From a virus (taxonomy: Duplodnaviria; Caudoviricetes), in the IMG/VR virus record IMGVR_UViG_3300025030_000016, positions 1-62,233 of that record: 62,233 nt of DNA; one strand, given 5' to 3'. The notes below the pieces were generated by a model. That model had not been told where the DNA came from, made no database searches, and saw only the letters and a program-made list of their open reading frames with translations. The position numbers were made by a program, and so were the translations under genes. This document shows positions 1-59,562 of this stretch, piece after piece. Every line of letters begins with the position of its first letter. The first letter of the stretch is position 1.

Positions 1-127
1 CAGCGGTCCACGTTCGAGGAGCTGAGCGACTGCACCAGTCTGTCCGGATTCAGATACTGGTAGGTCGTCGCGCCGCTCGGGTATTTCGTGACGCTGCAGT
101 TGGCGCTAGACCCCGTCACGTTGAAGG
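1..127. repeat. Terminal direct repeat (copy 1), assembly circularisation overlap
   Basis: Identical to 62107-62233; 127 bp is a common assembler k-mer size; it falls inside a CDS that reads through the junction. Confidence 0.95.
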
Positions 128-1382
128 TGAGGGTGCCGCCCCGCTTCTTGGTCGCAGTCAGCTTGATCGGGAAATTCAGCCTCTCGGCATAGGGGACCAC
201 CACGGAGAGCGGGATGTCGATGGTGGGAGCTGCCAAGGTCGAGTAGCTCGACTGCGTCATCGAGCCTCCTACGCAGGCGCCGCCCTGCAGGTCGAGAGTC
301 GCCTTGGACATCATCCCGAAGCTGCCGCCGACGGCGATGCCGCCCTCCATGGCTACCGCGCCCTCCTGCGGCGGTGGGTAGGTCTCGCCCATCGCACTGC
401 CCAGAGTCAAGCCTCCGATCATGGGGGATTTCACGAGGGTGCGGATGCCGAAGCTGCCGCCCAGGCTACCGCCGCCGTCCAGGAAGGTCCTTCGTCCCTG
501 GTTGAGGGTGACGGTGGTGATCTCGCCGGAGAGGCACATGCCCCCCTCCATGACGAAACTTCTGGCGGTGCGGGGCGACAGGCTGCCACCTAAGACGGCT
601 CCCCCCTCCATGCTCAGATTCAGGCTGTTGCCCGTGAAGATGATCATCTCGCCGCCCACGCAGCCTCCCCCCTCAAAGAGTGCGGGAGACGAAGGCTCGA
701 CCCCCGGACCGTACTCGGGGAAGCTGAAGTCGCCGCCGAAGAGCGTAGGTGCTGCGGCGTAGATCCCCGCCCCTGCCTGATCCAGGTGGAAACTCGACTC
801 GCCCCACGCTTCCAGCGTCAAGGTGAACTTGTGGATCGGCATCTGCGGAGTCACGGTGACCCGCTCGCCGACCGCAGGGTCGTAGATGAAATTGGGGGAG
901 GACGAGATCAGGGTGCCGGGCCAGCCTGCGGCGAGCGCCGCCAGTTCGGCAATGGTGAGAACGGTCGAGGTTGCGGAGACGACCCAGTCGGTCGACGAGG
1001 CGAAGAGGACCGGCCGCCCCGACTCGCCTCCTGCGGCGATCACGGTCCCTGTAACCCCCAGATGCTTGGCTCGGACGGTGTGCGAGGGGGAAGCCTCGGG
1101 GCCGTAGAACGGGACGCTGCTTCCCACGAAATCGGCGGGGGTGTCCCACGAAGAGACCAGCAGCTGGATCTCCTGCGGAGCGCCCACCTTCAGGATCTGG
1201 AGTATGTCGGCCTCAGGCGTGGCGGCGAGGAGGAACCTGCACAGGAGCGTGTCCGAACCGCCCCGATACGGCACGGCGTGGACCGCAGGGCGCGAGCCTT
1301 TGGAGAGCGCGGCGTACCGCCCTTTGGCGAAGGCCAGAGCCTCCCCCAGATTGGGGGATGTGCAGAGCGGCTGAAGTATCAC
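1..1382 (-). CDS. 5' part of an ~848-aa tail/fibre-associated protein that crosses the origin (continues 62106->60942)
   Basis: GTG at 1382, just after the stop of 1386..1811; open frame VILQPLCTSPNLG...TLTFNVTGSSANC joins ORF 60942..62225 in frame; ~7 repeats like MEGGAVLGGSL; missing from the ORF track. Confidence 0.8.
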   Translation of the reverse strand, partial: MILQPLCTSPNLGEALAFAKGRYAALSKGSRPAVHAVPYRGGSDTLLCRFLLAATPEADILQILKVGAPQEIQLLVSSWDTPADFVGSSVPFYGPEASPSHTVRAKHLGVTGTVIAAGGESGRPVLFASSTDWVVSATSTVLTIAELAALAAGWPGTLISSSPNFIYDPAVGERVTVTPQMPIHKFTLTLEAWGESSFHLDQAGAGIYAAAPTLFGGDFSFPEYGPGVEPSSPALFEGGGCVGGEMIIFTGNSLNLSMEGGAVLGGSLSPRTARSFVMEGGMCLSGEITTVTLNQGRRTFLDGGGSLGGSFGIRTLVKSPMIGGLTLGSAMGETYPPPQEGAVAMEGGIAVGGSFGMMSKATLDLQGGACVGGSMTQSSYSTLAAPTIDIPLSVVVPYAERLNFPIKLTATKKRGGTLTFNVTGSSANCSVTKYPSGATTYQYLNPDRLVQSLSSSNVDR

Positions 1383-46693: not shown

Positions 46694-46741
46694 AATGCCC
46701 CCTGCCTTTTAATGTTTGTCTTTTCCGGAGGATTACCCCAC

Positions 46742-49597
46742 ATGGATTTTCTATCAAGGCTCCTCCCGACCGCGGGGCTTTATTGCACGGCCCGCCTCTT
46801 TCCCGGGGGCGGTTTCATCCACACCTTCCACTCATCCATCGCCGAAGCCGAGACGCACCTGAAGACCATGGACTCCCAGGGGCACACCATGTACCTGGCG
46901 CAGGCATCCTACTCCATGGAAGCCTACCAGAACTGGAGCGCCAACAAGGGGCTGGACCGCGGCGCCAAGCGCGCCGGCGAGCGCACCCAGCAAAACGCAG
47001 CATACCTCAGGAACTTCTTCATAGACATCGACTGCGGCGAGGAGAAGTTCGCCAAGGACCCGCACAAGGCGTACCCGAACCAGGTAGAGGCGACCAAGGA
47101 CCTGCGCCGCTTCGTGTCCGAGACAGGTTTCCCCTTCCCTGCTCTGGTCTCCTCAGGCCACGGCCTCTACGCCCACTGGACCATCTCGGAAGACATCCCC
47201 GCCCTGCAGTGGAAGGCTCTGGCCGACATCTTCAAGCAGGTGCTGGTCAAGCACAAGTTCCGGCAGGACCCCTCCAGAACCTCCGACTCCGCTTCGGTGC
47301 TGCGCCCTGTAGGGACGCACAACCGGAAGACCAGCGAGGTGAAGGACGTGAAGGTCCTGGTCGAGGGGACGGACATCTCGCTCGCCACCTGGATAAAGAT
47401 TCTGGAGGCAGCAGCTGCCGGTGCCAAGGTGATGGCCCCCGCCCTCGCCATCCCGTCGCAGTTTCGAGGCATCAACGACGAGTTCACGGCAGGGCTCGAA
47501 GGGCCTCCCGCCTCGGCCCTGAAGGTCGCCGCCAAGTGCGCCCAGATCGGCTGGATCAAGAGCACCAAGGGGGACGTCTCGGAGCCGTTGTGGTACGCGG
47601 CCATCGGCCTCCTGCGCTACTGCGTCGAGGGTCCGGAGCTGATCCACGAGTGGAGTACCGGCCACCCCGACTACTCGGTGGAGGTGACCGACAACAAGAT
47701 CCAGCACCACATCGACTCCGGCGTCGGCCCCACGACCTGCGCCAAGTTCGCCTCGGAGAACCGGCAGCTCTGCGTGGGCTGCCCCTCCGCCAACAAGGTC
47801 AAGAGTCCCATCGTCTTGGGCCGCCCCGAGATGGAGAACTCCGCCGTCGTCACTGAAGAGGAGGACTCGTTCCAGCCCTACGGCTACCGGCGCGCTCCGG
47901 ACGGGGTCTACTTCGACGCCGACGACGCAGCACCCCTCAGGATTTACCCCTACGACATCTACCCTACGCGCATCGCCATGGACCAGAGCTTAGGCTACGA
48001 GACCGTGACCATCCGGCACCAGTTGCCGGTCTCCGGCGACTATCGAGAGTTCACCCTGCGCAGTGCGCTTCTGCACGACCAAAAGACTATGCTCATGCAC
48101 CTGGCCGACAACCACGTCCAGGTGAGCGGAAAGGAGGAACGAATCCGGATGAACAGCTATCTGGACCAATACATGGCGAGACTCAGGAGCATGAAGAACA
48201 TGTCGACTCTGCACTCCCAGATGGGGTGGCGGGCCGACGGCCTGGATCAGGCCTTCGTTTTGGGCGAGAACACCTACAAAATTGACGGAACCACGGAGGT
48301 AACTGGATTTGCCAAGAACATACCTGAAGTCGCCAAAGCATTCCACCCCCAAGGGGACCTCGCAGAGTGGTCGGAAGCGACTGCGGCCCTGGGTCTCGCC
48401 GGCATGGAGCCGTTCGCGTTCGCGTTTCTCGCCGGCGCTTTCGGCGCACCGCTCATGCGGTTTACTGGCTATGCGGGTGCGGTCGTTGCACTTGTCGGCC
48501 ATACAGGCATCGGCAAGACTCTGGCGGGCGAGTGGATCTTGTCCACCTACGGCGACCCCCGCCAGCTCTCACTCCTCAAAAACGACACCGTCAACGCCCT
48601 GGTCTCCCGCCTGGGCCTCTATGGCTCTCTCCCTCTTTACCTCGATGAGGTGAGTAACATCGAGGGGCAGGAGCTCTCGGACCTTCTGTACCGCATCACC
48701 CAGGGAAGGGACAAGGCGCGCCTGGGGCGCGACTCCCGGGAGAAGGCGGTCCTTAACTCGTGGAACACCGTCGCAGTGGCGAGCTCCAACCACTCGCTGG
48801 TGGACAAGCTCTCCACGCTGAAGGCCGACTCCTCGGCCGAGATCAACAGGATCATGGAGGTCTGCTGCCGCCCGGTGTTGACCTTCGGCCGGAACGAGGC
48901 CACCGCCGTCTACCGCACCTTTCACCAGAACTACGGCACCGCGGGGCCGCTCTATGCGGCGTACCTTGCCGAGCACCAGGCCGAGCACCGGGACAAGCTG
49001 GACGCCATCACCAAGAAGATCGACGCCATGAGTAACGCCAGCGCCGACGAGAGGTTCTGGTCCGCCATGAGCGGGGTCGCCATCTACGGCGGCATGATCG
49101 CCAAGAGCCTGGGGTTGATCAAGTTCGAGGTGACACCTATCTTGGTGTGGCTGGTGGATCGCATCAAGGAGATGCAGGGCGAGAAGGCAGAGCTGGTATC
49201 CTCGCAGGTGGACGTCCTGGGCCAGTTCCTGGACGAGGCCGCAGCAGGCATCATGGTCACCTCCGGCGACGACACCAAGCTCTGCTCGGTGCTGCGCGAG
49301 CCCAGAGGTCCTCTGGTGGGCCGCATCATGGTGGAGAAGAACATACTCCTGATCTCCCGCCAGGCACTGAAGAAATACCTGGACAAGCACTACGGGAGCT
49401 ACACCGACCTGAAGAACGAGTTGCAGGATTTAGGCGCCCTGAAGAGCTCCGACACCCGCAGGGTCTTGGGTTCCGGCACTTACATCGCCGGGTCGCAGCA
49501 GCCGGTCTGGGTGGTCGATCTGAACTGCCCTGCTCTCGGGCGCAAGGTCCTGACGCTGGTGTCGGACATCAACGAGGGGAGAAGGAGAGCAGAATAA
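46742..49597 (+). CDS. Primase-helicase (AEP/RepB'-like primase, DUF927, P-loop)
   Basis: FIDID, SSGHGLYAHW, VLRPVGT, SEPLWY, Cys cluster, GHTGIGKT, LDE. Confidence 0.88.
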   Translation: MDFLSRLLPTAGLYCTARLFPGGGFIHTFHSSIAEAETHLKTMDSQGHTMYLAQASYSMEAYQNWSANKGLDRGAKRAGERTQQNAAYLRNFFIDIDCGEEKFAKDPHKAYPNQVEATKDLRRFVSETGFPFPALVSSGHGLYAHWTISEDIPALQWKALADIFKQVLVKHKFRQDPSRTSDSASVLRPVGTHNRKTSEVKDVKVLVEGTDISLATWIKILEAAAAGAKVMAPALAIPSQFRGINDEFTAGLEGPPASALKVAAKCAQIGWIKSTKGDVSEPLWYAAIGLLRYCVEGPELIHEWSTGHPDYSVEVTDNKIQHHIDSGVGPTTCAKFASENRQLCVGCPSANKVKSPIVLGRPEMENSAVVTEEEDSFQPYGYRRAPDGVYFDADDAAPLRIYPYDIYPTRIAMDQSLGYETVTIRHQLPVSGDYREFTLRSALLHDQKTMLMHLADNHVQVSGKEERIRMNSYLDQYMARLRSMKNMSTLHSQMGWRADGLDQAFVLGENTYKIDGTTEVTGFAKNIPEVAKAFHPQGDLAEWSEATAALGLAGMEPFAFAFLAGAFGAPLMRFTGYAGAVVALVGHTGIGKTLAGEWILSTYGDPRQLSLLKNDTVNALVSRLGLYGSLPLYLDEVSNIEGQELSDLLYRITQGRDKARLGRDSREKAVLNSWNTVAVASSNHSLVDKLSTLKADSSAEINRIMEVCCRPVLTFGRNEATAVYRTFHQNYGTAGPLYAAYLAEHQAEHRDKLDAITKKIDAMSNASADERFWSAMSGVAIYGGMIAKSLGLIKFEVTPILVWLVDRIKEMQGEKAELVSSQVDVLGQFLDEAAAGIMVTSGDDTKLCSVLREPRGPLVGRIMVEKNILLISRQALKKYLDKHYGSYTDLKNELQDLGALKSSDTRRVLGSGTYIAGSQQPVWVVDLNCPALGRKVLTLVSDINEGRRRAE

Positions 49598-49629
49598 GGT
49601 TGACAGCGTGTCAACCTTTGAGCTAGGAT
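49596..49629 (+). promoter_or_regulatory. Promoter whose -35 lies in a perfect 10-bp inverted repeat
   Basis: AAGGTTGACA-GCG-TGTCAACCTT; TTGACA-18-TAGGAT. Confidence 0.55.
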
Positions 49630-49634
49630 GCCGT

Positions 49635-50057
49635 ATGTCATTTAAACGCGATCCAAAATTTGATGAGGCTGCACGGATGTACGATGCCGGTATGTCCGTG
49701 CAGAACGTAGCTGATTTCTACGGTGTTACCAGACAGTCTATGTGGAAGAGCCTCAAGCGCAGGACGACGCTCCGCCCCCAACTACGGTTTGGCGCTGATA
49801 ATCACTTCACCCGAGAAGGCGTGACCCCTAAAGATAGAGCGCACAACCTCTGCGAGCAAGCGATGAAGAGGCGGGTAATCGTTGCCCAGCCCTGCGAGGT
49901 TTGCGGGTTCGCAGGTAAGGCTAAAGACGGGCGTAATCTTGTTCAGGCTCACCACGACGACTACAACAAACCCCTTGAAGTGCGCTGGCTCTGCCAGAAG
50001 CACCACCATGAGTGGCACAAGCACAATTTACCAATTCCATTTAGTGAGGGAGATTGA
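49635..50057 (+). CDS. HTH plus HNH-like Zn-finger protein
   Basis: GMSVQNVADFYGVTRQSMWKSL; CEVCG...AHHDDY.KPLEVRWLC..HH. Confidence 0.75.
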   Translation: MSFKRDPKFDEAARMYDAGMSVQNVADFYGVTRQSMWKSLKRRTTLRPQLRFGADNHFTREGVTPKDRAHNLCEQAMKRRVIVAQPCEVCGFAGKAKDGRNLVQAHHDDYNKPLEVRWLCQKHHHEWHKHNLPIPFSEGD

Positions 50058-51245
50058 ATGTGGATATTACCAAACCGACTCTTGTCTCAATATGCACAGG
50101 CTACGGGGGGCTGGAACTCGGCATCGAAAGAGCAATTGGCCGAAAGTGCCTCACACTCGCTGCATCAGAGATCGAAGCATGGGCCATCGAAAACCTGGTT
50201 GCGAAAATGGAAGCAGGGCTTCTGCCCCCGGCTCCAATCTGGAGCGATCTGCGAACCTTTCCGGCAAGACCATTTCACGGCTTGGTGGACATCCTGTGCG
50301 GCGGCTATCCTTGTCAGGATTTTTCGGCAGCAGGTAAGCGCGCCGGATTCGACGGGGAGAAGGGTAAGATCTGGGGGTATGTGCGTACTCTCGTTCGAGA
50401 CATGCAACCGCGATTCTGCTTTTTCGAAAATGTCTCCGGGCACATCTCGCTTGGACTCTCCACAGTCCTCAGCGACCTGGAAGAAGATGGTTACCGCACA
50501 GAGTGGGGAGTATTCTCAGCGGCTGAAGTCGGCGCGCCTCACCAGCGCAAACGGGTGTTCATCCTTGCGGCAAGAGCCGGGGTCGTACCCGACTCCGGCT
50601 GCCAGGGACTACAAGAACACTTCAGAGAACCCGGAACACAACGAGGCGAGGTGGGAACACTCCAGGGGCAAGACGCTGCCGGAGTTTGTGAAACATGGCC
50701 CTCACGCCCTGGAGAGCCGCAGCACTGGTGGGAGCCTCCAAGAACAGTGGCCCACAGCCACAAGCAACATGATGACGGGAGCGGGGACTGCGGGGCGGGA
50801 AGGCGGGATGAATTTGCAGACGAAAGTCTCGGGGAAGCTCAACCCCCGTTGGGTCGAGACTCTCATGGGACTTCCCGTAGGCTGGACCATGCCGAGCTGT
50901 TCAGCACCTGTGACAATCGAGTCGATGAACTGCGCCTGCTTGGAAACGGCGTCGTGCCTGCCACCGCTGAGAAGGCTTGGCGAGTTCTCTACGGGAGACT
51001 CGTGGGGAACTCGCCGAGTCACCACTAACGGCGGCAACGGGAACCCTGAGAGGTTCGACGACAAGAAGAGTCGGTTGGAGGATCAGGTTTACTGGCCCAC
51101 CATCCGCGCCTCGGATGCCGACCCTGGCATCACCGTAGGGCGGCTTGAAGGCGAACTTGGAGGCCGTCTCTACGACAAAGAGACTGGCAGGAACTGCCAG
51201 TACGGTCTGACTCAGCAGGTCCAGCTGGCAGGAGGCCTCGCATGA
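50058..51245 (+). CDS. Overlapping-frame beta chain of the C5-MTase (motif IX plus repeated PT modules)
   Basis: 395 codons open in the alternative frame; LNPRWVETLMGLPVGW; stop overlaps the NUDIX ATG. Confidence 0.75.
   Translation: MWILPNRLLSQYAQATGGWNSASKEQLAESASHSLHQRSKHGPSKTWLRKWKQGFCPRLQSGAICEPFRQDHFTAWWTSCAAAILVRIFRQQVSAPDSTGRRVRSGGMCVLSFETCNRDSAFSKMSPGTSRLDSPQSSATWKKMVTAQSGEYSQRLKSARLTSANGCSSLRQEPGSYPTPAARDYKNTSENPEHNEARWEHSRGKTLPEFVKHGPHALESRSTGGSLQEQWPTATSNMMTGAGTAGREGGMNLQTKVSGKLNPRWVETLMGLPVGWTMPSCSAPVTIESMNCACLETASCLPPLRRLGEFSTGDSWGTRRVTTNGGNGNPERFDDKKSRLEDQVYWPTIRASDADPGITVGRLEGELGGRLYDKETGRNCQYGLTQQVQLAGGLA
50060..51028 (+). CDS. C5-cytosine DNA methyltransferase, alpha chain (motifs I-VIII and X)
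   Basis: CTGYGG, GYPCQDFS, ENV, HQRKRVF, LGNGVV; motif IX absent; start GTG 50060 or TTG 50054. Confidence 0.88.
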   Translation: MDITKPTLVSICTGYGGLELGIERAIGRKCLTLAASEIEAWAIENLVAKMEAGLLPPAPIWSDLRTFPARPFHGLVDILCGGYPCQDFSAAGKRAGFDGEKGKIWGYVRTLVRDMQPRFCFFENVSGHISLGLSTVLSDLEEDGYRTEWGVFSAAEVGAPHQRKRVFILAARAGVVPDSGCQGLQEHFREPGTQRGEVGTLQGQDAAGVCETWPSRPGEPQHWWEPPRTVAHSHKQHDDGSGDCGAGRRDEFADESLGEAQPPLGRDSHGTSRRLDHAELFSTCDNRVDELRLLGNGVVPATAEKAWRVLYGRLVGNSPSHH

Positions 51246-51649
51246 TCCACTACGTCCTAGGCTTCGCCTTCACTGAAGACCGGCAGAAGGTGGTCCTGAT
51301 CAGGAAGAACAGAGGGCCGGTCGAACTGCACGACCTCCTGAACGGCGTCGGAGGCAAGATCGAGCCGCATGAAACGACTTACGACGCCATGAGCCGAGAG
51401 TTCGCCGAGGAGACGGGAGTTCAGGCGCTGGATTGGCGCTACCGCGGCTGCTTCTCAGGCCCGGGCTACAGCGTCAAGGTCTTCTCCGCCTTCAGCGACG
51501 AGATCCTGAAGGCCAGAACCGTGGAGGACGAGGAGGTGGAGATCGTCGATCTGCCTCAAGGGGTGCCGCAGCCCTGCCCCAACGTCCCGCTCCTGGTGGG
51601 ACTCTGCCTTAACCCGAGGGTTAAGCGATTCAGTTTTGAGGAGGAGTAG
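51242..51649 (+). CDS. NUDIX hydrolase
   Basis: GGKIEPHET...AMSREFAEETG Nudix box. Confidence 0.92.
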   Translation: MIHYVLGFAFTEDRQKVVLIRKNRGPVELHDLLNGVGGKIEPHETTYDAMSREFAEETGVQALDWRYRGCFSGPGYSVKVFSAFSDEILKARTVEDEEVEIVDLPQGVPQPCPNVPLLVGLCLNPRVKRFSFEEE

Positions 51650-51656
51650 GTTCGGC

Positions 51657-54600
51657 CTACTCCCCCCTCACCTTCTCCTGAATCAGTTTCTCCCGCTCCG
51701 TGAGTATGCCGGAGCGGGCTCTGATCCCCCGCTTCACCGCCTCCAGCAACTCCGACTGCGCGATCTTCATCTCGGGCTGCTTCTCCCCCCAGGCGTTGAT
51801 CGCCTCCAGAGCCTCCTCCCTCGCCTCGAAATCCCCCTCCATGGTTGCCTCGGTCATCCGGCGCACCAGAAGTGAGCGTCTCTGCCTGAGCTCCACGGTG
51901 AGCCCTGACATGGCGCGCCGCTCGTCCTGCGCCAGCGACACCTCAGTCGGGTTGATCCCCAGAAGCTGCAGGGCGATGCTGACCGGCGAGACGTCCTCCG
52001 GCTGGATCAGGGTGTTTCCTCCCGCACCCACGGCGCCCCGCTCCGTGAGGTTGTACGCCTTGGCGAAATCCTTGACGACCTTGGGGGAGGAGGCGGTGAC
52101 CGCCAGCCCCAGATCCCCGTCGCTCAGAGCATCTATGGCGCGCATGGAGTCGGAGGCGATGCCGAAAGCAGGACCCAGAACCCTCCCCGCATACCACTGA
52201 GCCTTCTGCGTGCCGGAGAGTCCCGGGGGCGGCTCTCCCGAGATCACGTTCGCCATGCCGCCCAGACCCACCCTCTTGGAGATGTCCGCGCCCAGCATGG
52301 CCGGGAGGCCCTTCAGGAAGGCGTTGCCGGCGGTGTCGCCGACCGCTTCCCGCACCATGTTCTCGAACTCCCGCTTGGGCTCCCATGGGTCGTCGGGGTC
52401 GCCGAAGGCTGCGGCAAGCCCCGCCCAGATCGCGCTGGTCACGGTGTTGGAGGCGAGGAGCGCCACGGGAGTCCCTGCGGCGCCTGCAAGCCCCATGCTC
52501 ATGCCGGTCATGTAGGCCAGCTCCTTGCGGGCCTCACCCCACCCCTTCTCGCCGTAGGCATCCTTGGCGAGCTGCACCATCTTGCCCAGCATGTGCAGCC
52601 TGAAGAACTGGAACTGCCCCAGGATGCGCCCCGTGTTGCCCCGCAGAAGCCCCGGCCGGTTCTGGCTGGAGAAGTCGGCCAGGGTGTCGTCGATGATGTT
52701 GGAGGCATAGTCGTTCGCCTCCATGAAGTCCTTGCCGTGGGAGAGCGCCAGCTGGAAGGAGGAGACCGCCGCCGCGCGCCGGGAACCTGTCTCCGACTTC
52801 TGCATGAAGAAGGCTCCCTTGTTCACTACGTCGTCCAGCATCTTCTGCCCGTCCGAGGCCCCGGTGATCAGGTCCTGCAAGGCGTGCGAGGAGGAGAGGT
52901 CCAGCATCCCCTGGAGTCCCAGGGTCTTCAGGATCAGGAGGCGCTTACCCTTGTCGTCGAAGCCGTTGTAGAGCGCCTGCATCGCCTTGCGAAGCCCTGC
53001 CTTCTCGGCGGGGAGGGCCTTGCGCTCCTGCTGGATCAGGTCGTAGAGCCGCTCGCCTGCATTCTCGTGCGCCACGTTGAACGCCTCGATCTTCTCGTCG
53101 GAGAATTCGCCGGCCAGATACCTCTTGGCCTCTTTCACATAGGCGCCGAACGCCTTGGTGACCCCGTAGCGCGCCGCCATCTTGGGGATGGTGGTCATGA
53201 AGGGCTGCGACCACTGCACCGCCCAGACCGAGGGGCTGGAGAGGTACCAGAGGAAGGTCGCCTTCCCCACAGCCTTGGTGAACTCGTTGACCTTCTCGGC
53301 GTTATGCTGCATCTCCAGACGGTACAGGTTGTCCTTCAGGCTGGACATCCTCTCCACGGCATGGGGTGACCAGTCGGCCGAGGGGTCCTGGTAGGCCTTG
53401 ATGCTGTTGTTCATGTCGCGGAAGCTCTGGTCGATCGCGGTGCCGTACTTCAGATTCGCAATCGCCCTAGCTGACTTGGCGACGTAGGTGGCGTAGGAGC
53501 GCAGCGCGTCGGTGGAGTAGCCCTCGACCCCCTCACGCTTCAGGGAGTGACCGGCCACCGAGTAGCGGGGCATGGTCTGAAGCCTGGCCGCCTTGAAGTC
53601 GTCCATGAGCGCGTCCAGTGCCTCTCCGGAGAGACCCCTCGCCTCGGCCGCCATCTTCATCTTCTCCAAGAAGGCCAGCGGGATGTTGGTGACGTTACGG
53701 TCCCCCTCGGTCTGAAGATCGTAGACCGGGAACACTCCGGCCTCGCCGCGGATGCGAGCCACGGCATCCATCGCCTGCTGCTTGGTCTCGAAGAACTCGG
53801 TCTTGACCCGCTTCTCGGAGTCGGCCTCAAGGGTGCGCACCACATGGTCGCCGAAGCGCATGAGGGGCGCGTAGTCCCCCTTCAGTTGCCCGCGGTCGGA
53901 GTTGATCATGGCGATCTGCTCCGCGAGGCTCATGGCGTCGGCGCCGTGCTTCTCGTACATCTTGCCGATGCCGTCGGCGTCCAGTTTCCATAACTGCTCG
54001 GAAAGCTGCTCCGCCAGGTCGAAAGCCTCGTCGCCGAAGGAGGCGCGCAGGGGTTCCAGCTGCGCCGCGCGGAACTGCTCGGAGAGGACTTTCATGTGGT
54101 CGATGATCTTCTGCTGCACCCGGCGCTGTTCAGGGTTGAGCTTCTTCCAGAGGGCTGCGATCTCGGCCCGGGCCTCGCCCAAGGTCTTGCCGGTCTGCTC
54201 CAGCTTCCCTGACTCTTTCCACGACGCCTCGGTCCAGCCAGCGTTCCTGCCGTCGGCGTGCTGCTCGTAGAGGGTCGCCTTCAGGGTCAGGTCGTCGAAC
54301 GCCTTATGCTCAGCGTCGGTCTTGAAGGCCTTCTCGAACTCCAGCCGGATGGTCTGCGCTCTTGTGGGGGGCTCGTCACCCGCCGCAGCCTTGGCCCGTT
54401 TCTGCCTGAGATAAGTCTCCAGGTGCGCCTTGATGGGGGCGTAGAGCGGCATGGACTGAGCCATGCGGATGGTCCGGTCCACTGGCATGACAGCGCGCCA
54501 GATGTTCCCCGAGAGGTCGGAGAGGACCCTCTTGGCGACCTGCCCGTCCAACTTTTTGGTGAAGGCGGTGAGCGCCTTGGGGTCAGAGAGAGTGCGAGCG

Positions 54601-57600
54601 AAGCGAGTCTCAGGGTTCGCCTTCTCATAGTCAGAAATCAGTTTCGCTGTCACGGTGCGGATCTTGTTGAAGTCTTTGTAGATGACCGCTGTAGCCTGCG
54701 CCGGGAACCTGCCGCCGTTCTTCTCGAAGACACGGCTGATCAGGTCGGAGACGTAGGCCAGCACTTTCTGAAACAGCGTCGGGTTCTCCTTGCTCATCTC
54801 GACCCAAAAGTCCTTCTCAGCGAGCAGAGCACCTACAGTGTCGGCCACGACTTCTTTTCCCGCCCGAGGTTTCGGAAAAGCCTTCAGATACTTCTTAGCC
54901 CCTTCCGCAGTGATCTGAGACCGGACGAACGCCTCGAAGGGGGCGTACAGTTCAGGTGCGCTCAGCTCAATGGTGTGCAGCAGTTCGTGTCCGAACACAG
55001 CCAGATGCGGCTCACTGGCGTTGGCGTTGATGTAGATGGTCGAAGGGTCGGTGTTTCGTATGAATCCGTCAGGAACTTCCAGCCCGTTCAAACTCTCAAA
55101 CACCACAACCTTCTTCCTGAAGGCTGCGCCAATTCCGCTGAGATGTCTTCCCACTTCCGTCTCTCGGCTAATTCGGACACCTCCTGGTATGACAGGTTTT
55201 CCAAGTGCTTCGGCAACGGCAGCCCTAACTCGTTCGAGTTCTCCGCCTGCGCCACCATCATCTTCAGTGACAGAAGTCCCGGGTGCATTTTCTTCTCCTT
55301 TCCTCTGCATCACCTCTCCGGCGCGGGCCACCAGCGAGCGGAGTTCGGTGTCCGTGTACTTCAGGTCGAACCCGAGTTTCCTCAGCGCCGCCTTGAAAAT
55401 CTCCACGAAGCGGTCCCACAGGGGATGCTTGGCATCGGTCTTCGCCAGCTCGACGATGTACTCCTCGGTCGCCTCCAGCTTCCCTTCCTTGTCCTTGGTG
55501 TCGATCCCCTTGGACTTGGCGAACTCCCTGACCCCCGAACCCAGATCGCCCCACGCCTTGGCGAGCAGTTTCTCCAGACCGTCGCGGCCAAGAAGCGAGC
55601 GCAGGCCGGCGTGCTGCAGTTCGTGGCGCAGGAGGACATCCTCCGCCTCTTTCAGCGAGGTGATGTGCTCGGCGTTCAGGTAGATGGTGCCGTTGTGGAA
55701 GACGCCGTTGAAGGCCGGAGCGTCCGGGCGAAGTCCCGGGATCTCGGAACCGGTGGCGACCACCTTGACGGGGATCTTCAGCTTGGCGACGATGGGGGCG
55801 AGATGCGCGCGCAGCGCCTCCGCCTCGACGGGTGCCTGCAGGTCGGCATACGTCGCCCTCCCTGCGAGGATCTGGTTGTACTGGTCCAGCTGCACCTCAA
55901 GGCGCGAGGTCAGGTCGTCCGCCGTGATGCCTTGCTGCGAGGCCGCAGCGGCGATCCCTTTGGCATCAGCCAGTCGGCGCACCGTCTCCTGCTTGGCCTC
56001 CTGGATGTCCGCCTTCGAGGGGGTGCGGGAGAATGCTGTCGCGTCCTGCTTCAGCTTCTCAGAGATATAAAAGGCGAGAGCGTTCCGGCGTATCGCGTTC
56101 AAATGCTTTTCAAGCTGCGACTGTTTCGCGTCCTCTGAACGGTTCACCCACGCTGGGTTGTTCTTCCAAGTATGCTCGCGCAGTCGGGTGGTCTCTTTGT
56201 CGAGAGACTCCTGGACTCCGATGGATTCCCATGCGGCGTGGGAGACTTTGCTCAGTTCTGCGTCGGTAATCGACTCGGACATCTTTAGCTTGCTCTGAAC
56301 TCCTTGCGCGATGAGGCTTCGGATTGACCCCACCACCGACTTCGGAATCCCCGCATCTGCGAAGGATGCGACTCGGGCGAATCTCGCCCCTTCAGGACTC
56401 AAAAGCCCCGCCTGCCTCAAAGCGCCAACCATGCGCTGCGCCGCCTCAGGGCTCTCAGCCGTTCCGGCATCTACCTCGAACTCACCCTTGGCGTTCTTCT
56501 CCGCCTGCGCCACCTTGGCGCGTTTCCCCCGCGGGTCGGTCATGACCAGGATGACCTTGTCGTCCTTACGCATCAGGGTCTCCGTGGGGGAGAGCTCCAT
56601 CTGCTGGCCGCTTAGGAGGGTCTTAGGCTCCTGTGGAGCCAGGGCCGCTGCCTGCTCTACAGCGGCCTCCGCCTTCTTCTCAATCCTCCACTCCCGCCGC
56701 TTGGCCGAGCCGCCTGCGGTCCGGTCCAGACGCTCCCCCTTGACCAGCGTGAAGCCCAGATCGTCCAGATGCGCCGCGACCTCCGCATCAGGGAGGAGCC
56801 CCTCTTTCAGTACGGTCCTGCCTGCCTTGGCCCAGGTCTGCGCGCGCAGGAGCGAAGGGTCGGCCACAGGCTCTGCCGGGATGGCGCGACCCTTCGTGCT
56901 CCCTTCCTGCACTACGACAGGCTCCTCCGGAGTAAAGAGATCCTGCTGAACCGGCTTCAACGCCTCCACGACCTTTGCCTCTTCCTTGGCCTGCAGGATC
57001 TCCAGAGGGTTCTCCTCCACGGAGAGCGACTCGGCTACCGCCTCAAGGAGTGCGGCCCTCGTCTCCTCCGGCTTCGCCTCTCCTGCCAGCTCCTCGACGA
57101 CCTTCTGCGTCTCGGCATCAAGCGGATGGTCCCCCGCATCAAGCCGGTCCAGAGCCTCGGCCTGGAAAGCTACTGAGTCTTCCGGGTTCAGCCGGGCGGC
57201 CAGAGCCTCGACTGCCGGTTTCTGCTCCTCAGGGAAGAGGTCCTGCAACTCGTCCAGCTCCTCCTTGATCTTCGTGGCTTCGCCGCCCACCCCCGCCGCC
57301 TTGGCGGCCAGGTTGAAAGCAGCCGAAGTCCCGCCGCCCATGACCCCGCCGGCCAGAGCGCCTGAGGCCGCCGCTGCACCCACCCCTTGAGTCAAGGGTT
57401 TCCCTGTCGCAAGGTTCTGTGCCGCCTGCTCCTGCGCGGACTGCGGCATCTCTTCAAGGAGACCCTCGGAGGCTACACCGCCTGCCAGAGCCTTGACCGT
57501 TCCAGTCTTGGCCGCCTGCGCCCCTCCGGCCAGAGCCGTGTCCACGTCGGCGATACCGAAACGGCGGGCGAGTCTGCCTCCCGCCACACCGAGAGCTCCT

Positions 57601-58175
57601 GTGGCTGCCCCGCTCCCTGCCGCAATCGCCGCCTGCTTGCCGGTGATGAGGCCCGTGGGACTCTCCTGCCTGATCTGCTCCGCCGTGGAGCCTGCGCTCA
57701 TGACCCCCTCGCCCGCGGCCGCAGCAGCGACCACCGGCACTCCTGCTTTCATAAGCCCTCGGGCTACACCCGCGCCGCCCAGCATGGAGGGCGCCGACTC
57801 GATGACCGTGTGAGCGATCGTGGACGGGTTCCTGAAAGAAGCCTTCAGTCTCGGCACGAAGCCGTCGGCCTGAGAGACCTCGGCGTTCGCCGCCTGCTGC
57901 TCCAGAGAGTAGAGGGTGTCCAGGGTCGCCTTGGCTTCCTTGGGCCTGAAGCCTACGGCCTCCGCCGCTTTCCCCGCAAGCCCTCCGGTGGCAATGTCCG
58001 CCACACCTACCACCGCCTCGGGGAGGCCGATGGCTCCCTTGGTCGCGGAGATTAGAGGGTCTGCCACGAACCGGCGCAGGCGGGAAGGAGGTGCCGCAGG
58101 TCCGACTTCCGGACCCTCGTAGGGGGTGAGCTTGGGCGCGTCTACTTCTTCGCCGTCATAGGGGGTCAGGGCCAC
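51657..58175 (-). CDS. Large polyvalent ejected virion protein (PLxRFG domain, two zincin HExxH domains), ~2172 aa
   Basis: GTG 58175 after RBS AAGGAGAGG; YAPLMRFG; RHELQH and GHELLH; Ala/Gly-rich N-terminus (EEMPQSAQEQ). Confidence 0.85.
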   Translation of the reverse strand: MALTPYDGEEVDAPKLTPYEGPEVGPAAPPSRLRRFVADPLISATKGAIGLPEAVVGVADIATGGLAGKAAEAVGFRPKEAKATLDTLYSLEQQAANAEVSQADGFVPRLKASFRNPSTIAHTVIESAPSMLGGAGVARGLMKAGVPVVAAAAAGEGVMSAGSTAEQIRQESPTGLITGKQAAIAAGSGAATGALGVAGGRLARRFGIADVDTALAGGAQAAKTGTVKALAGGVASEGLLEEMPQSAQEQAAQNLATGKPLTQGVGAAAASGALAGGVMGGGTSAAFNLAAKAAGVGGEATKIKEELDELQDLFPEEQKPAVEALAARLNPEDSVAFQAEALDRLDAGDHPLDAETQKVVEELAGEAKPEETRAALLEAVAESLSVEENPLEILQAKEEAKVVEALKPVQQDLFTPEEPVVVQEGSTKGRAIPAEPVADPSLLRAQTWAKAGRTVLKEGLLPDAEVAAHLDDLGFTLVKGERLDRTAGGSAKRREWRIEKKAEAAVEQAAALAPQEPKTLLSGQQMELSPTETLMRKDDKVILVMTDPRGKRAKVAQAEKNAKGEFEVDAGTAESPEAAQRMVGALRQAGLLSPEGARFARVASFADAGIPKSVVGSIRSLIAQGVQSKLKMSESITDAELSKVSHAAWESIGVQESLDKETTRLREHTWKNNPAWVNRSEDAKQSQLEKHLNAIRRNALAFYISEKLKQDATAFSRTPSKADIQEAKQETVRRLADAKGIAAAASQQGITADDLTSRLEVQLDQYNQILAGRATYADLQAPVEAEALRAHLAPIVAKLKIPVKVVATGSEIPGLRPDAPAFNGVFHNGTIYLNAEHITSLKEAEDVLLRHELQHAGLRSLLGRDGLEKLLAKAWGDLGSGVREFAKSKGIDTKDKEGKLEATEEYIVELAKTDAKHPLWDRFVEIFKAALRKLGFDLKYTDTELRSLVARAGEVMQRKGEENAPGTSVTEDDGGAGGELERVRAAVAEALGKPVIPGGVRISRETEVGRHLSGIGAAFRKKVVVFESLNGLEVPDGFIRNTDPSTIYINANASEPHLAVFGHELLHTIELSAPELYAPFEAFVRSQITAEGAKKYLKAFPKPRAGKEVVADTVGALLAEKDFWVEMSKENPTLFQKVLAYVSDLISRVFEKNGGRFPAQATAVIYKDFNKIRTVTAKLISDYEKANPETRFARTLSDPKALTAFTKKLDGQVAKRVLSDLSGNIWRAVMPVDRTIRMAQSMPLYAPIKAHLETYLRQKRAKAAAGDEPPTRAQTIRLEFEKAFKTDAEHKAFDDLTLKATLYEQHADGRNAGWTEASWKESGKLEQTGKTLGEARAEIAALWKKLNPEQRRVQQKIIDHMKVLSEQFRAAQLEPLRASFGDEAFDLAEQLSEQLWKLDADGIGKMYEKHGADAMSLAEQIAMINSDRGQLKGDYAPLMRFGDHVVRTLEADSEKRVKTEFFETKQQAMDAVARIRGEAGVFPVYDLQTEGDRNVTNIPLAFLEKMKMAAEARGLSGEALDALMDDFKAARLQTMPRYSVAGHSLKREGVEGYSTDALRSYATYVAKSARAIANLKYGTAIDQSFRDMNNSIKAYQDPSADWSPHAVERMSSLKDNLYRLEMQHNAEKVNEFTKAVGKATFLWYLSSPSVWAVQWSQPFMTTIPKMAARYGVTKAFGAYVKEAKRYLAGEFSDEKIEAFNVAHENAGERLYDLIQQERKALPAEKAGLRKAMQALYNGFDDKGKRLLILKTLGLQGMLDLSSSHALQDLITGASDGQKMLDDVVNKGAFFMQKSETGSRRAAAVSSFQLALSHGKDFMEANDYASNIIDDTLADFSSQNRPGLLRGNTGRILGQFQFFRLHMLGKMVQLAKDAYGEKGWGEARKELAYMTGMSMGLAGAAGTPVALLASNTVTSAIWAGLAAAFGDPDDPWEPKREFENMVREAVGDTAGNAFLKGLPAMLGADISKRVGLGGMANVISGEPPPGLSGTQKAQWYAGRVLGPAFGIASDSMRAIDALSDGDLGLAVTASSPKVVKDFAKAYNLTERGAVGAGGNTLIQPEDVSPVSIALQLLGINPTEVSLAQDERRAMSGLTVELRQRRSLLVRRMTEATMEGDFEAREEALEAINAWGEKQPEMKIAQSELLEAVKRGIRARSGILTEREKLIQEKVRGE

Positions 58176-58185
58176 AGGCCTCTCC

Positions 58186-59562
58186 TTACTGAACGAATTT
58201 TTTACCCTGCGCGTCGACCAGGATGGCCTTGCCTTCAGGGGTGAACTTGCCGGATGCTTTGAAGCCTGCAGGGATCGCCGCCGCGGCAGGGTCGAACAGC
58301 TGCCCCGCATCGTTGACCAGCCCCGCCTGCTGATCAGGGCCGAACCATTTGTTCTTCGCCTTCTGGACTTTCCGGTAACCGCCACGAACGGCGAGGGCGG
58401 CCTCGGAGGGGAGGAGCCCTGCGCTGGTGGCGAGGGACTCGGCGTAGGCTGCGTCGGCCTTGACCATGGGGGAGTTGTTCCTCGCCTCCAGAGCCTTCAG
58501 CTTCCCTTCCTCGATCATGCGCTGCTTCTCTAGCGTGAGGTCTGCGTCCGACTTGCTCCGGACTCCCTCGCCCAAAGCATTCTTGTAGGCGATGTCGGCG
58601 CGGGTCGCCTCGGGGTAGAACTGAGCCTCCAGATCGGTCTTGGTGGCGGCTGCCCTCAGGCTGTTCCGGTAGGACGCTGCGGTCTGGAGGTCGGAACCCT
58701 GGTCCAGCACCTTCCCCGGGAGGAGCGTATCCCTCTCCGCGATCTGCGAGACCGTACCCGCCTCGGTCGTGTCCGCGTTCTGCTGGCTCACCCTGTAGGT
58801 GCGCAGGTTGTTCGCCTCGGTCTCGGCCTGCTTCTGCTGCTCCAGAGCCAAAGCCCTGCGCTTGAAGAAGAACGGCTCTCCGTCGGGGGTGGACGCCTGT
58901 GCATCCTCCCACGCCTCCTGACTCCCCGTGTAGCCTACGTCTCCGGCCCGTTTCCGATAGGTGGGAGCGGAGTCGAACTGAGCCTCTCCTGTGGAGCCGA
59001 GCCCGTCGTAGGCCTTGCTCCCCGCGATGTACATCCTGACCCCGTCCTGCTCGATGTAGCCTCTGCCTGCGGACTCCGCCACAGGCTCCTCTGCGGAGTA
59101 GGAGACGGTCGGCGTGGGGATCGGCACGGGGCGCTGCGGGACCGCTGCAGCCTGAGGCCTGCGGTAAGAGGGGGCTGAGGTCGATGCCGCAGAAGCGGCG
59201 GGGGAGATCAAACGCTCCCCGGGAGTGTGCGCGGCGATCGTGGAAGGTCGCAACCCCAAGGCCGGAGCCGTAGCCGCCTGTGCAGGGGTGGTCCCCCGGG
59301 CCTCGTAGCGTCTGAGGTTCGCCGCAGGGAAAGCCGCCTGCCGCTCCTCGAAGGTCGTGGTCGGCGTGCCGGTGGCTGCGACGGCGTTGTAGGTTCGCAC
59401 CCCCGCGTTGACCAGACCGTTCACCCCTGCCTTGGCGAGTCCGCCCAAAGCTCCCCCAAGGGTTTTGACGTCACCCAGCTTGGCGGGGTCGGTCTCGTAG
59501 TCGTTCAGTTTTGCCGGCAAGCCGAAATAGGATCGAGCGTTGAACCTCGCGGTTTCCGCCAT
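58186..59562 (-). CDS. Internal virion (ejection) protein
   Basis: Low-complexity Ala-rich helical protein preceding the giant protein. Confidence 0.65.
   Translation of the reverse strand: MAETARFNARSYFGLPAKLNDYETDPAKLGDVKTLGGALGGLAKAGVNGLVNAGVRTYNAVAATGTPTTTFEERQAAFPAANLRRYEARGTTPAQAATAPALGLRPSTIAAHTPGERLISPAASAASTSAPSYRRPQAAAVPQRPVPIPTPTVSYSAEEPVAESAGRGYIEQDGVRMYIAGSKAYDGLGSTGEAQFDSAPTYRKRAGDVGYTGSQEAWEDAQASTPDGEPFFFKRRALALEQQKQAETEANNLRTYRVSQQNADTTEAGTVSQIAERDTLLPGKVLDQGSDLQTAASYRNSLRAAATKTDLEAQFYPEATRADIAYKNALGEGVRSKSDADLTLEKQRMIEEGKLKALEARNNSPMVKADAAYAESLATSAGLLPSEAALAVRGGYRKVQKAKNKWFGPDQQAGLVNDAGQLFDPAAAAIPAGFKASGKFTPEGKAILVDAQGKKFVQ

Follow-up and report, generated by a model that had tools for sequence, protein, structure and literature searches.

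Two fully overlapping reading frames with a common ATGTG start at a phage C5 cytosine methyltransferase locus

Results

Anatomy of the locus

We studied a putative C5 cytosine methyltransferase locus in the Caudoviricetes virus record IMGVR_UViG_3300025030_000016, which was analyzed over its full length (hereafter the window; the record is complete, 62,233 bp long and carries direct terminal repeats). The locus consists of two open reading frames (ORFs) on the same strand, frame A encoding a catalytic chain that we call alpha and frame B encoding a second chain that we call beta. The ATG of frame B at 50058 and the GTG of frame A at 50060 have one G in common in the sequence ATGTG, and 969 nt of DNA are read in both frames. 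The features, all on the + strand, are listed below; the master frame is the one that appears as the selected frame in the conservation data presented further on.

50046 to 50052, + strand: Shine-Dalgarno-like GAGGGAG, seen in the sequence 5 nt before the ATG
50058 to 51245, + strand: frame B ORF (beta), 395 amino acids (aa), with start peptide, leader, two modules, putative motif IX and two tail modules
50060 to 51028, + strand: frame A ORF (alpha), 322 aa from the GTG, with motifs I-VIII, a linker holding an island, and putative motif X
50058 to 50081, + strand: beta start peptide MWILPNRL, selected in frame B
50081 to 50587, + strand: alpha large-domain core with motifs I-VIII (PF00145), frame A master
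50586 to 50690, + strand: beta module 1, YPTPAARD...LPEFV, conserved in frame B above frame A
50696 to 50743, + strand: alpha island WPSRPGEPQHWWEPPR, 16 residues, frame A master inside the module region
50748 to 50828, + strand: beta module 2, WPTATSN...LQTKV, frame B
50835 to 50888, + strand: beta motif-IX-like block KLNPRWVETLMGLPVGWT (also written LNPRWVETLMGLP), frame B master
50912 to 50989, + strand: alpha putative motif X helix DNRVDELRLLGNGVVPATAEKAWRVL, which holds LLGNGVVP, frame A master
51003 to 51089, + strand: beta tail module 3, WGTRRVTT...LEDQV, after motif IX
51093 to 51221, + strand: beta tail module 4, WPTIRASD...LTQQV, in single-coding DNA past the alpha stop

An original prediction, made from the letters of the window, had proposed two fully overlapping frames launched 2 nt apart from one ATGTG behind a single ribosome-binding site, with about 970 bp of dual coding, and these coordinates all hold. 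It had also stated that the catalytic chain lacks motif IX, which would be found in the other frame (we locate the block at 50835-50888 in frame B), that there are four modules with two of them after motif IX (50586-50690, 50748-50828, 51003-51089 and 51093-51221), and that frame B runs on to couple with a NUDIX gene, in agreement with the TGA/ATG overlap (ATGA) at 51242. The alpha island, the selected residues of the beta start and leader, and the family-wide layout go beyond that prediction.

Four C5 motifs can be read directly in frame A, namely ICTGYGG (motif I), GGYPCQ (the P-C of motif IV), FENV (the E-N-V of motif VI) and HQRKR (motif VIII), and the C-terminal part of alpha reads ...LRLLGNGVVP... 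The Pfam family PF00145 covers frame A residues 8-176 only, corresponding to positions 3-166 of a profile of 324 (E 1.3e-33 and 3.8e-35), while frame B gave no Pfam match. We found no motif IX in the catalytic chain, and the motif-IX-like block sits in frame B; therefore, neither chain alone is a complete member of the PF00145 family.

The two-frame layout is found across a large family

We looked for relatives of beta and asked in which frames the pieces of the enzyme are encoded. Residues 174-395 of beta retrieved 1503 relatives at E<=1e-3, most of them without a Pfam domain, and 69 of 120 beta relatives among the matches listed begin with M(T)W-I-L-P. A profile of 42 full-length beta members matched 27,677 cluster representatives at E<=1e-3, 11,838 at 1e-10 and 2,428 at 1e-30. 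DNA loci were collected in two samples: a first one of 80 viral loci, collected by means of this profile and ranked by full-length beta, a query biased toward open B frames, and a second one fetched with the beta modules and motif IX only (profile A2), comprising 69 distinct loci, 6 of which are cut by the contig end. The samples have many contigs in common and the loci are related, so that the counts are not independent events.

In the first sample, the N-terminal half of the Dcm-type enzyme lay in frame B+2 in 80/80 loci, with an identity of 54-71% compared to 31-46% for the frame-B translation. The motif-X piece was in the alpha frame in 77 of these loci and in the beta frame in 2 (L027 and L040), and was lost at the contig end in 1. 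Among the 63 complete loci of the second sample, the arrangements were:

Both frames uninterrupted between the shared start and motifs IX and X: 56 of 63
Frame B open, frame A short of motif X: 2 of 63
Motifs I-VIII fused in frame with the modules: 2 of 63
Pieces spread over three frames: 3 of 63

The relatives with the two-frame layout have a G+C content of 52-61%. The layout is widespread in uncultured phages and largely unannotated, and the second frame, whose conservation the original prediction had made decisive, is open together with the first in those 56 complete distinct relatives.

Searches of known genomes returned more distant versions. A tblastn search of 50,697 phage records with the C-terminal half of beta gave no match at 1e-5, and the relative P0089 used as query at 1e-2 matched 30 phage records; a profile search of genome contigs gave only 10 loci, mostly on contigs of metagenome-assembled genomes, which are too few for a host range. 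The cultured or named versions are those of Phage C75C1, of Rhodobacter capsulatus phages and of the Leptospira interrogans plasmid p2, all with only frame A annotated, as "DNA methylase" or "DNA cytosine methyltransferase" in the phage RcCWillis and plasmid p2. Translation of the +1 frame of C75C1, RcCWillis (L082) and plasmid p2 (L173) revealed W-x-T-P modules and a motif-IX-like block, and in RcCWillis and p2 this unannotated frame is open over most of the gene; therefore, the layout extends well past the close family. The Rhodobacter capsulatus phages number 23, of which RcCWillis alone was translated, the other 22 being tblastn matches under a "DNA methylase" annotation.

Selection alternates between the two frames

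The openness of both frames was compared with a permutation test over 68 distinct loci, in which synonymous codons were shuffled within each locus while the master protein and its codon usage were kept. Frame B had 0 stops across the N-terminal half in 68/68 loci (permutation mean 2.7 stops, P(none) 0.04) and frame A had 0 stops across the middle in 67/68 (permutation 4.3 stops, P(none) 0.018), while the third frame, used as control, had 6.3 and 7.1 stops observed versus 6.2 and 6.8 simulated. The openness of both frames is under selection.

We also mapped the master frame along alpha by conservation and codon-position entropy over 52 loci, with the following result:

Alpha codons 1-10: master frame B, start peptide
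Alpha codons 11-170: master frame A, motifs I-VIII
Alpha codons 171-210: master frame B, weakly, module 1
Alpha codons 211-230: master frame A, island
Alpha codons 231-280: master frame B, module 2 and motif IX, conservation 0.98
Alpha codons 281-310: master frame A, motif X

Over the whole locus, conservation is highest in the motif-IX-like block, which reaches 0.98/0.92 in frame B versus 0.68/0.63 in frame A and has its wobble at frame-B position 3. The island WPSRPGEPQHWWEPPR shows the reverse signature: across 96 distinct DNAs its W, P, Q, E and R never change, and the wobble falls at frame-A position 3. This frame-A island between frame-B stretches suggests that ribosomes would read both frames across the middle of the locus. 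Substitutions in independent close pairs give the same masters: over 27 pairs in the N-terminal half, frame A has a dNN/dSN of 0.056, and over 12 pairs in the middle, frame B has one of 0.051. The dN/dS check proposed with the original prediction is clear for the master frame of each region and unusable for the slave frame, for which the OLGenie-like ratios were discarded as evidence for or against selection, the control frame giving 3.0 where frame B gave 0.275.

Selection in frame B reaches into the N-terminal half as well. Across 93 distinct starts, the beta start peptide follows the pattern W-I-[LIV]-P-x-x-L, with W in 93, I in 92, L/I/V in 92, P in 93 and L8 in 88; entropy is ~0 at frame-B positions 1-2 and 0.9-1.6 at position 3, and alpha residues 3-8 vary across the same DNA. 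From its sequence, beta appears to be read from the shared start. Further downstream, 10 of 46 conserved four-fold sites of the alpha N-terminal half are frozen (for example GGT in 51/51 and GCG in 52/52, where no alternative would make a stop), in comparison with 15/15 free sites (H3 at least 1.1) in the motif-X stretch. Therefore, the beta leader is mostly a shadow of alpha but holds specific selected residues.

The start region itself was counted over 96 distinct loci. The ATGTG geometry of the window (frame A on GTG, frame B on ATG, offset 2) is present in 55 of them, ATGnnATG (two ATG codons, offset 5) in 27, and other offsets, up to 11 nt, in 14. Alpha begins with GTG in 58 and with ATG in 35 of 93 distinct relatives. 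A Shine-Dalgarno-like word lies at -20 to -4 in 50 of 90 related starts, and among 90 loci with a long B frame the upstream in-frame stop abuts the beta start in 6 and lies within 27 nt of it in about half. The shared start might set the stoichiometry of the subunits.

Predicted structures and the alpha-beta complex

We modeled each chain alone and part of beta together with alpha. The AlphaFold2 (AF2) model of alpha, from a 52-row alignment, has a mean predicted local distance difference test score (pLDDT) of 69.4, with residues 1-178 and 295-316 confident (about 90 in the core and 95/82 in the motif-X residues 295-316), residues 189-294 below 50-60 and the island at 56-59. Residues 189-294 are also hypervariable, apart from the island. 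The model fits M.HhaI (2uyc_A) with Z 17.4 and a root mean square deviation of 3.5 A over 193 aligned residues, from model 4..320 to chain 10..327; the fit runs end to end, and therefore the C-terminal helix is placed like motif X. Profile A3, made from the alpha N-terminal half, also matches M.HhaI (E 1.7e-15). As modeled, alpha consists of the large domain and the motif-X helix, without a small domain. Motif X is recognized here by structure, and Pfam gives no score for that part.

The model of beta alone is poor (mean pLDDT 48.6, predicted template modeling score 0.23), exceeding 70 only at residues 135-164 and in the motif IX region, and a fold search with it was dropped for this reason. 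We observed that residues 135-164 form a leader helix (50460-50550, pLDDT 71-91) that coincides with the frozen alpha four-fold sites G144 and A154; this helix is outside the construct used for the complex, which paired alpha with beta 168-300.

This pair reached an interface score (ipSAE) of 0.88 in three runs, and none of 3 controls exceeded 0.00. The runs share at least 67% of their contacts, and the partner pLDDT is at least 54. The mark applied is reached by 58/80 solved complexes and 2/110 mismatched pairs, a rough guide only, as our own alignments were used. The predicted interface joins alpha 154-164, 210-231 and 277-301 with beta 228-239 and 256-292, and within it the motif IX segment (beta 256-292) touches the island (alpha 224-231), motif X (277-301) and motif VIII (154-164), the motif-IX-like block packing on alpha 224-231 and 290-301. 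The complex check suggested by the original prediction thus favours chains that assemble; what the prediction shows is that the parts fit, binding itself being beyond it.

The names motif IX and motif X must be read as putative, since they come from position, the fit of the alpha C-terminal helix, the predicted interface and the motif consensus. For the frame-B block, a place just ahead of motif X and the packing predicted against that helix agree with a putative motif IX.

The beta modules form one repeat family

The modules of beta and its relatives are one homologous repeat family, present in 1-8 copies per protein. Discrete types of target recognition domains (TRDs) could not be defined by single-linkage BLAST, as 318 of 472 modules merged into one cluster. 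For some module types, the side of motif IX on which they stand differs between proteins: the type of module 3 is found before motif IX in P0005 and P0029. Module 4 is common to P0002, P0004 and L008.

No solved chain matched the modules by sequence (profile A2 against the PDB, 0 at E<=10), they fold with low confidence in the predicted structures, and an ESM Atlas search returned only unnamed viral clusters with a template modeling (TM) score <0.33. Their W-x-T-P-x-A-x-D start presumably resembles the conserved T-L core of Dcm-type TRDs, a likeness that the PDB profile search did not recover and that we take as a lead only. This possible likeness and the position between motifs VIII and IX suggest that the modules may be recognition units; whether as separate TRDs they would give multispecific methylation, as the original prediction proposed, is a matter of conjecture.

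Natural variants redistribute the pieces between chains

A minority of loci carry the same pieces in other arrangements. In L091, alpha ends 2 codons past the island and frame B carries motif X behind motif IX, and in L027 and L040 frame A shuts just before motif X, which lies inside the beta ORF. L158 and P0015 join motifs I-VIII in one frame to the modules and motif IX, and keep the island and motif X open in another frame. L092 has a first ORF with motifs I-VIII and the island and, in the same frame, a second one with the modules, motif IX and motif X. Between the two ORFs lie two stops beside a GA-rich repeat coding for (ER)n (L092:2640-2700), perhaps a tract prone to slippage or an artefact of assembly. 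Finally, L105, L128 and L136 spread the enzyme over three frames, in the order motifs I-VIII; leader, one module, island and motif X; modules and motif IX.

Enzyme pieces have therefore moved between chains and almost never been lost, which fits an enzyme assembled from parts, and the transfer of motif X onto beta would be expected of pieces that come together in a single complex. We also noticed that two beta relatives, P0026 and P0053, have a C-terminal PD-(D/E)XK nuclease domain (PF12705, precomputed annotation); therefore, beta can be fused with other DNA-acting domains.

Genomic context

The window has a G+C content of ~60% and encodes a DNA polymerase, helicases, a primase-helicase and tail fibres. 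The immediate neighbours of the locus are:

49608 to 50057, + strand: helix-turn-helix (HTH) gene, 149 aa, N-terminal HTH_7 (E 4.4e-5), Cys/His-rich C-terminal end
50055 to 50057, + strand: TGA stop of this gene, in frame B, directly abutting the beta ATG
51242 to 51649, + strand: NUDIX gene (PF00293, E 2.6e-10), its ATG overlapping the beta TGA

As the stop of the HTH gene touches the beta ATG, termination-reinitiation could feed both starts. The gene neighbourhood is not conserved, the NUDIX gene, the upstream HTH gene and the primase-helicase each occurring in 1 of 169 related loci (L008 for NUDIX); the NUDIX coupling is therefore local to the window phage and L008 and not a feature of the system. 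A 961-aa primase/helicase lies just upstream (46712-49597; phrog_8841, E 1.3e-36), and therefore the methylase sits in a replication module. Directly downstream, on the - strand, a 2242-aa ORF (51657-58385) has PHROG matches to DarB-like antirestriction proteins (E 2.3e-40), to large virion proteins of unknown function and, weakly, to virion RNA polymerase; it may be a candidate injected giant anti-defence protein beside the methylase.

Discussion

The observed anatomy, the open frames throughout the family and the alternating selection are probably explained by a two-chain methylase resembling M.EcoHK31I, with total overlap of its genes, a shared start and modules in beta at the place of the TRD. 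According to this explanation, 50058-51245 would be translated in two same-strand frames from starts 2 nt apart behind one ribosome-binding site. Alpha would provide the S-adenosylmethionine-binding and catalytic large domain (motifs I-VIII), a mostly disordered linker of ~110 residues and the motif-X helix, and beta would consist of the octapeptide, a leader mostly shadowing the alpha core, W-x-T-P modules at the TRD place, motif IX and two more modules. Motif IX of beta would dock on motif X and the island of alpha, rebuilding the small domain and hinge, and the assembled enzyme would methylate cytosines, presumably in the phage's own DNA. We infer that both chains are made, bind each other and are both needed, and anything said of the target sequence and the biological role is conditional in the same way; an anti-restriction role may be suggested by the phage setting.

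Several points weigh against this explanation. The production of either chain is deduced from sequence, the control frame shows that codon-position effects distort the slave-frame ratios, and beta taken by itself is modeled with low confidence. The complex may have passed because it resembles solved single-chain C5 methyltransferases, the two chains being halves of one fold. Motifs IX and X were not detected by sequence tools (Pfam and PDB searches) even in the in-frame variants: Pfam gave no C-terminal PF00145 match on L091, L027, L092 or P0015, and a PDB sequence search with the C-terminal end of L091 gave chance matches only. Moreover, 7 of the 63 complete loci deviate (2 fused, 3 in three frames, 2 with frame A short of motif X), and the loci are kin to one another.

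We considered three other explanations. It is unlikely, in our opinion, that alpha is self-sufficient and beta a separate overprinted protein, such as a DNA-binding protein, a counter-defence protein or a regulator of alpha, and not an obligatory subunit. GenBank annotates only frame A in C75C1, RcCWillis and Leptospira p2, the island and the segment before motif X might replace motif IX, and the modules and leader of beta have no known fold. However, alpha 189-294 is predicted to be disordered and is hypervariable save for the island, and therefore alpha lacks its own small domain; the motif-IX-like block, where conservation in the locus peaks, is selected in frame B; variants carry motif X on beta; and the predicted interface is the one expected of a C5 methyltransferase.

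Even less probable is a single chain made by programmed frameshifting, from frame A (motifs I-VIII) by a +1 shift to frame B (modules and motif IX) and by a -1 shift back to frame A (motif X), the shadow frames being by-products. The order of motifs along the DNA would indeed be that of a normal one-chain enzyme if the frame were switched twice, and the fused variants P0015 and L158 exist, but the shadows are kept open far above expectation, the frame-A island between frame-B stretches would require four shifts, and the beta start peptide is selected in frame B. In addition, an X_XXY_YYZ heptamer was found in 0 of 93 distinct junctions between motifs IX and X, and the junction between motif VIII and the modules is hypervariable. 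As for the possibility that only one frame is real and the other an accidental G+C-rich ORF or the product of sequencing or assembly indels, we give it next to no credence. The G+C content of the window favours long spurious ORFs, and the beta leader resembles out-of-frame sequence and lacks a Pfam match; against this, the same layout recurs in 56/63 complete distinct relatives at 52-61% G+C, the third frame has 6-7 stops, as simulated, and both frames show wobble signatures of their own in parts of the locus. These family data exclude a spurious ORF or an error of sequencing.

The two-chain explanation has a precedent. In the published work on M.EcoHK31I (PMC2836561), the alpha chain carries motifs I-VIII and X together with the TRD, and the beta chain, encoded wholly in another frame inside alpha, carries motif IX; the analogy drawn in the original prediction, an alternative-frame chain with motif IX, holds to this extent. 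Both systems would be two-chain C5 methyltransferases with a catalytic chain bearing motifs I-VIII as well as X, and a motif-IX chain in another frame of the DNA of the catalytic chain. The two systems also differ. Beta of M.EcoHK31I is small, nested and has its own internal start, whereas beta of the window is longer than alpha, overlaps all of it and starts 2 nt before it from the same ribosome-binding site. M.EcoHK31I alpha keeps the TRD, whereas the modules at the TRD position in the window are on beta and selected in frame B. Finally, the window frames alternate as the selected one, in interleaved mosaics of constraint, unlike what is described for M.EcoHK31I, and the likeness is one of description. 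Our literature search found the M.EcoHK31I work and no fully overlapping phage enzyme; subscription journals and supplements were outside this search, and a prior description is possible. A heterodimeric C5 methyltransferase with an alternative-frame subunit is known, and the total overlap and the shared starts appear to be new.

Other known systems resemble the locus in part. The N-terminal half and the model of alpha match M.HhaI, a one-chain C5 methyltransferase (PF00145; PDB 2uyc, 1dct). Unlike the window, such enzymes are encoded in a single frame, with the small domain (TRD and motif IX) in the same polypeptide. Split methyltransferases of the M.AquI type are made of two polypeptides divided after motif VIII and encoded by adjacent genes; the variant L092, with motifs I-VIII in the first ORF and modules, motif IX and motif X in the second, is similarly divided, while the genes of the window fully overlap and motif X is on the catalytic chain. 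Multispecific C5 methyltransferases of Bacillus phages are single chains with tandem TRDs. Like them, the family has several modules between motifs VIII and IX, in variable number (1-8), but its modules are one homologous repeat family, on a separate chain, and some of them follow motif IX. Overlapping genes of the phiX174 type also yield two proteins from one DNA stretch in different frames of the same strand; in comparison, the overlap measures ~970 nt in the window, reaching ~1.2 kb in relatives, it takes in an entire enzyme, and its products, unlike those of such overlaps, appear to be parts of one enzyme.

A wider proposal, which we regard as possible but doubtful, is that total two-frame encoding is the normal and ancient build of a very large superfamily of phage C5 enzymes (tens of thousands of clusters at 50% identity) that annotation has missed, that the beta array is a swappable recognition set for one or several targets, and that competition between starts 2-5 nt apart sets the alpha:beta ratio. 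Annotation misses two-frame encoding because gene callers keep one of two fully overlapping ORFs, and the database entry is either a "DNA methylase" whose middle is of puzzling low complexity or a "hypothetical protein". Considering the 27,677 cluster representatives found at E<=1e-3, many phage methylomes may be read with half of the enzyme missing. Few same-strand overlaps of prokaryotic viruses would be longer or better supported than this one of ~1 kb, and its functional segments, interleaved on one DNA, would be a natural test case for the evolution of two proteins. Moreover, a natural split that places the recognition side on a separate chain with a variable number of modules would offer a route to study, and perhaps to exchange, target recognition.

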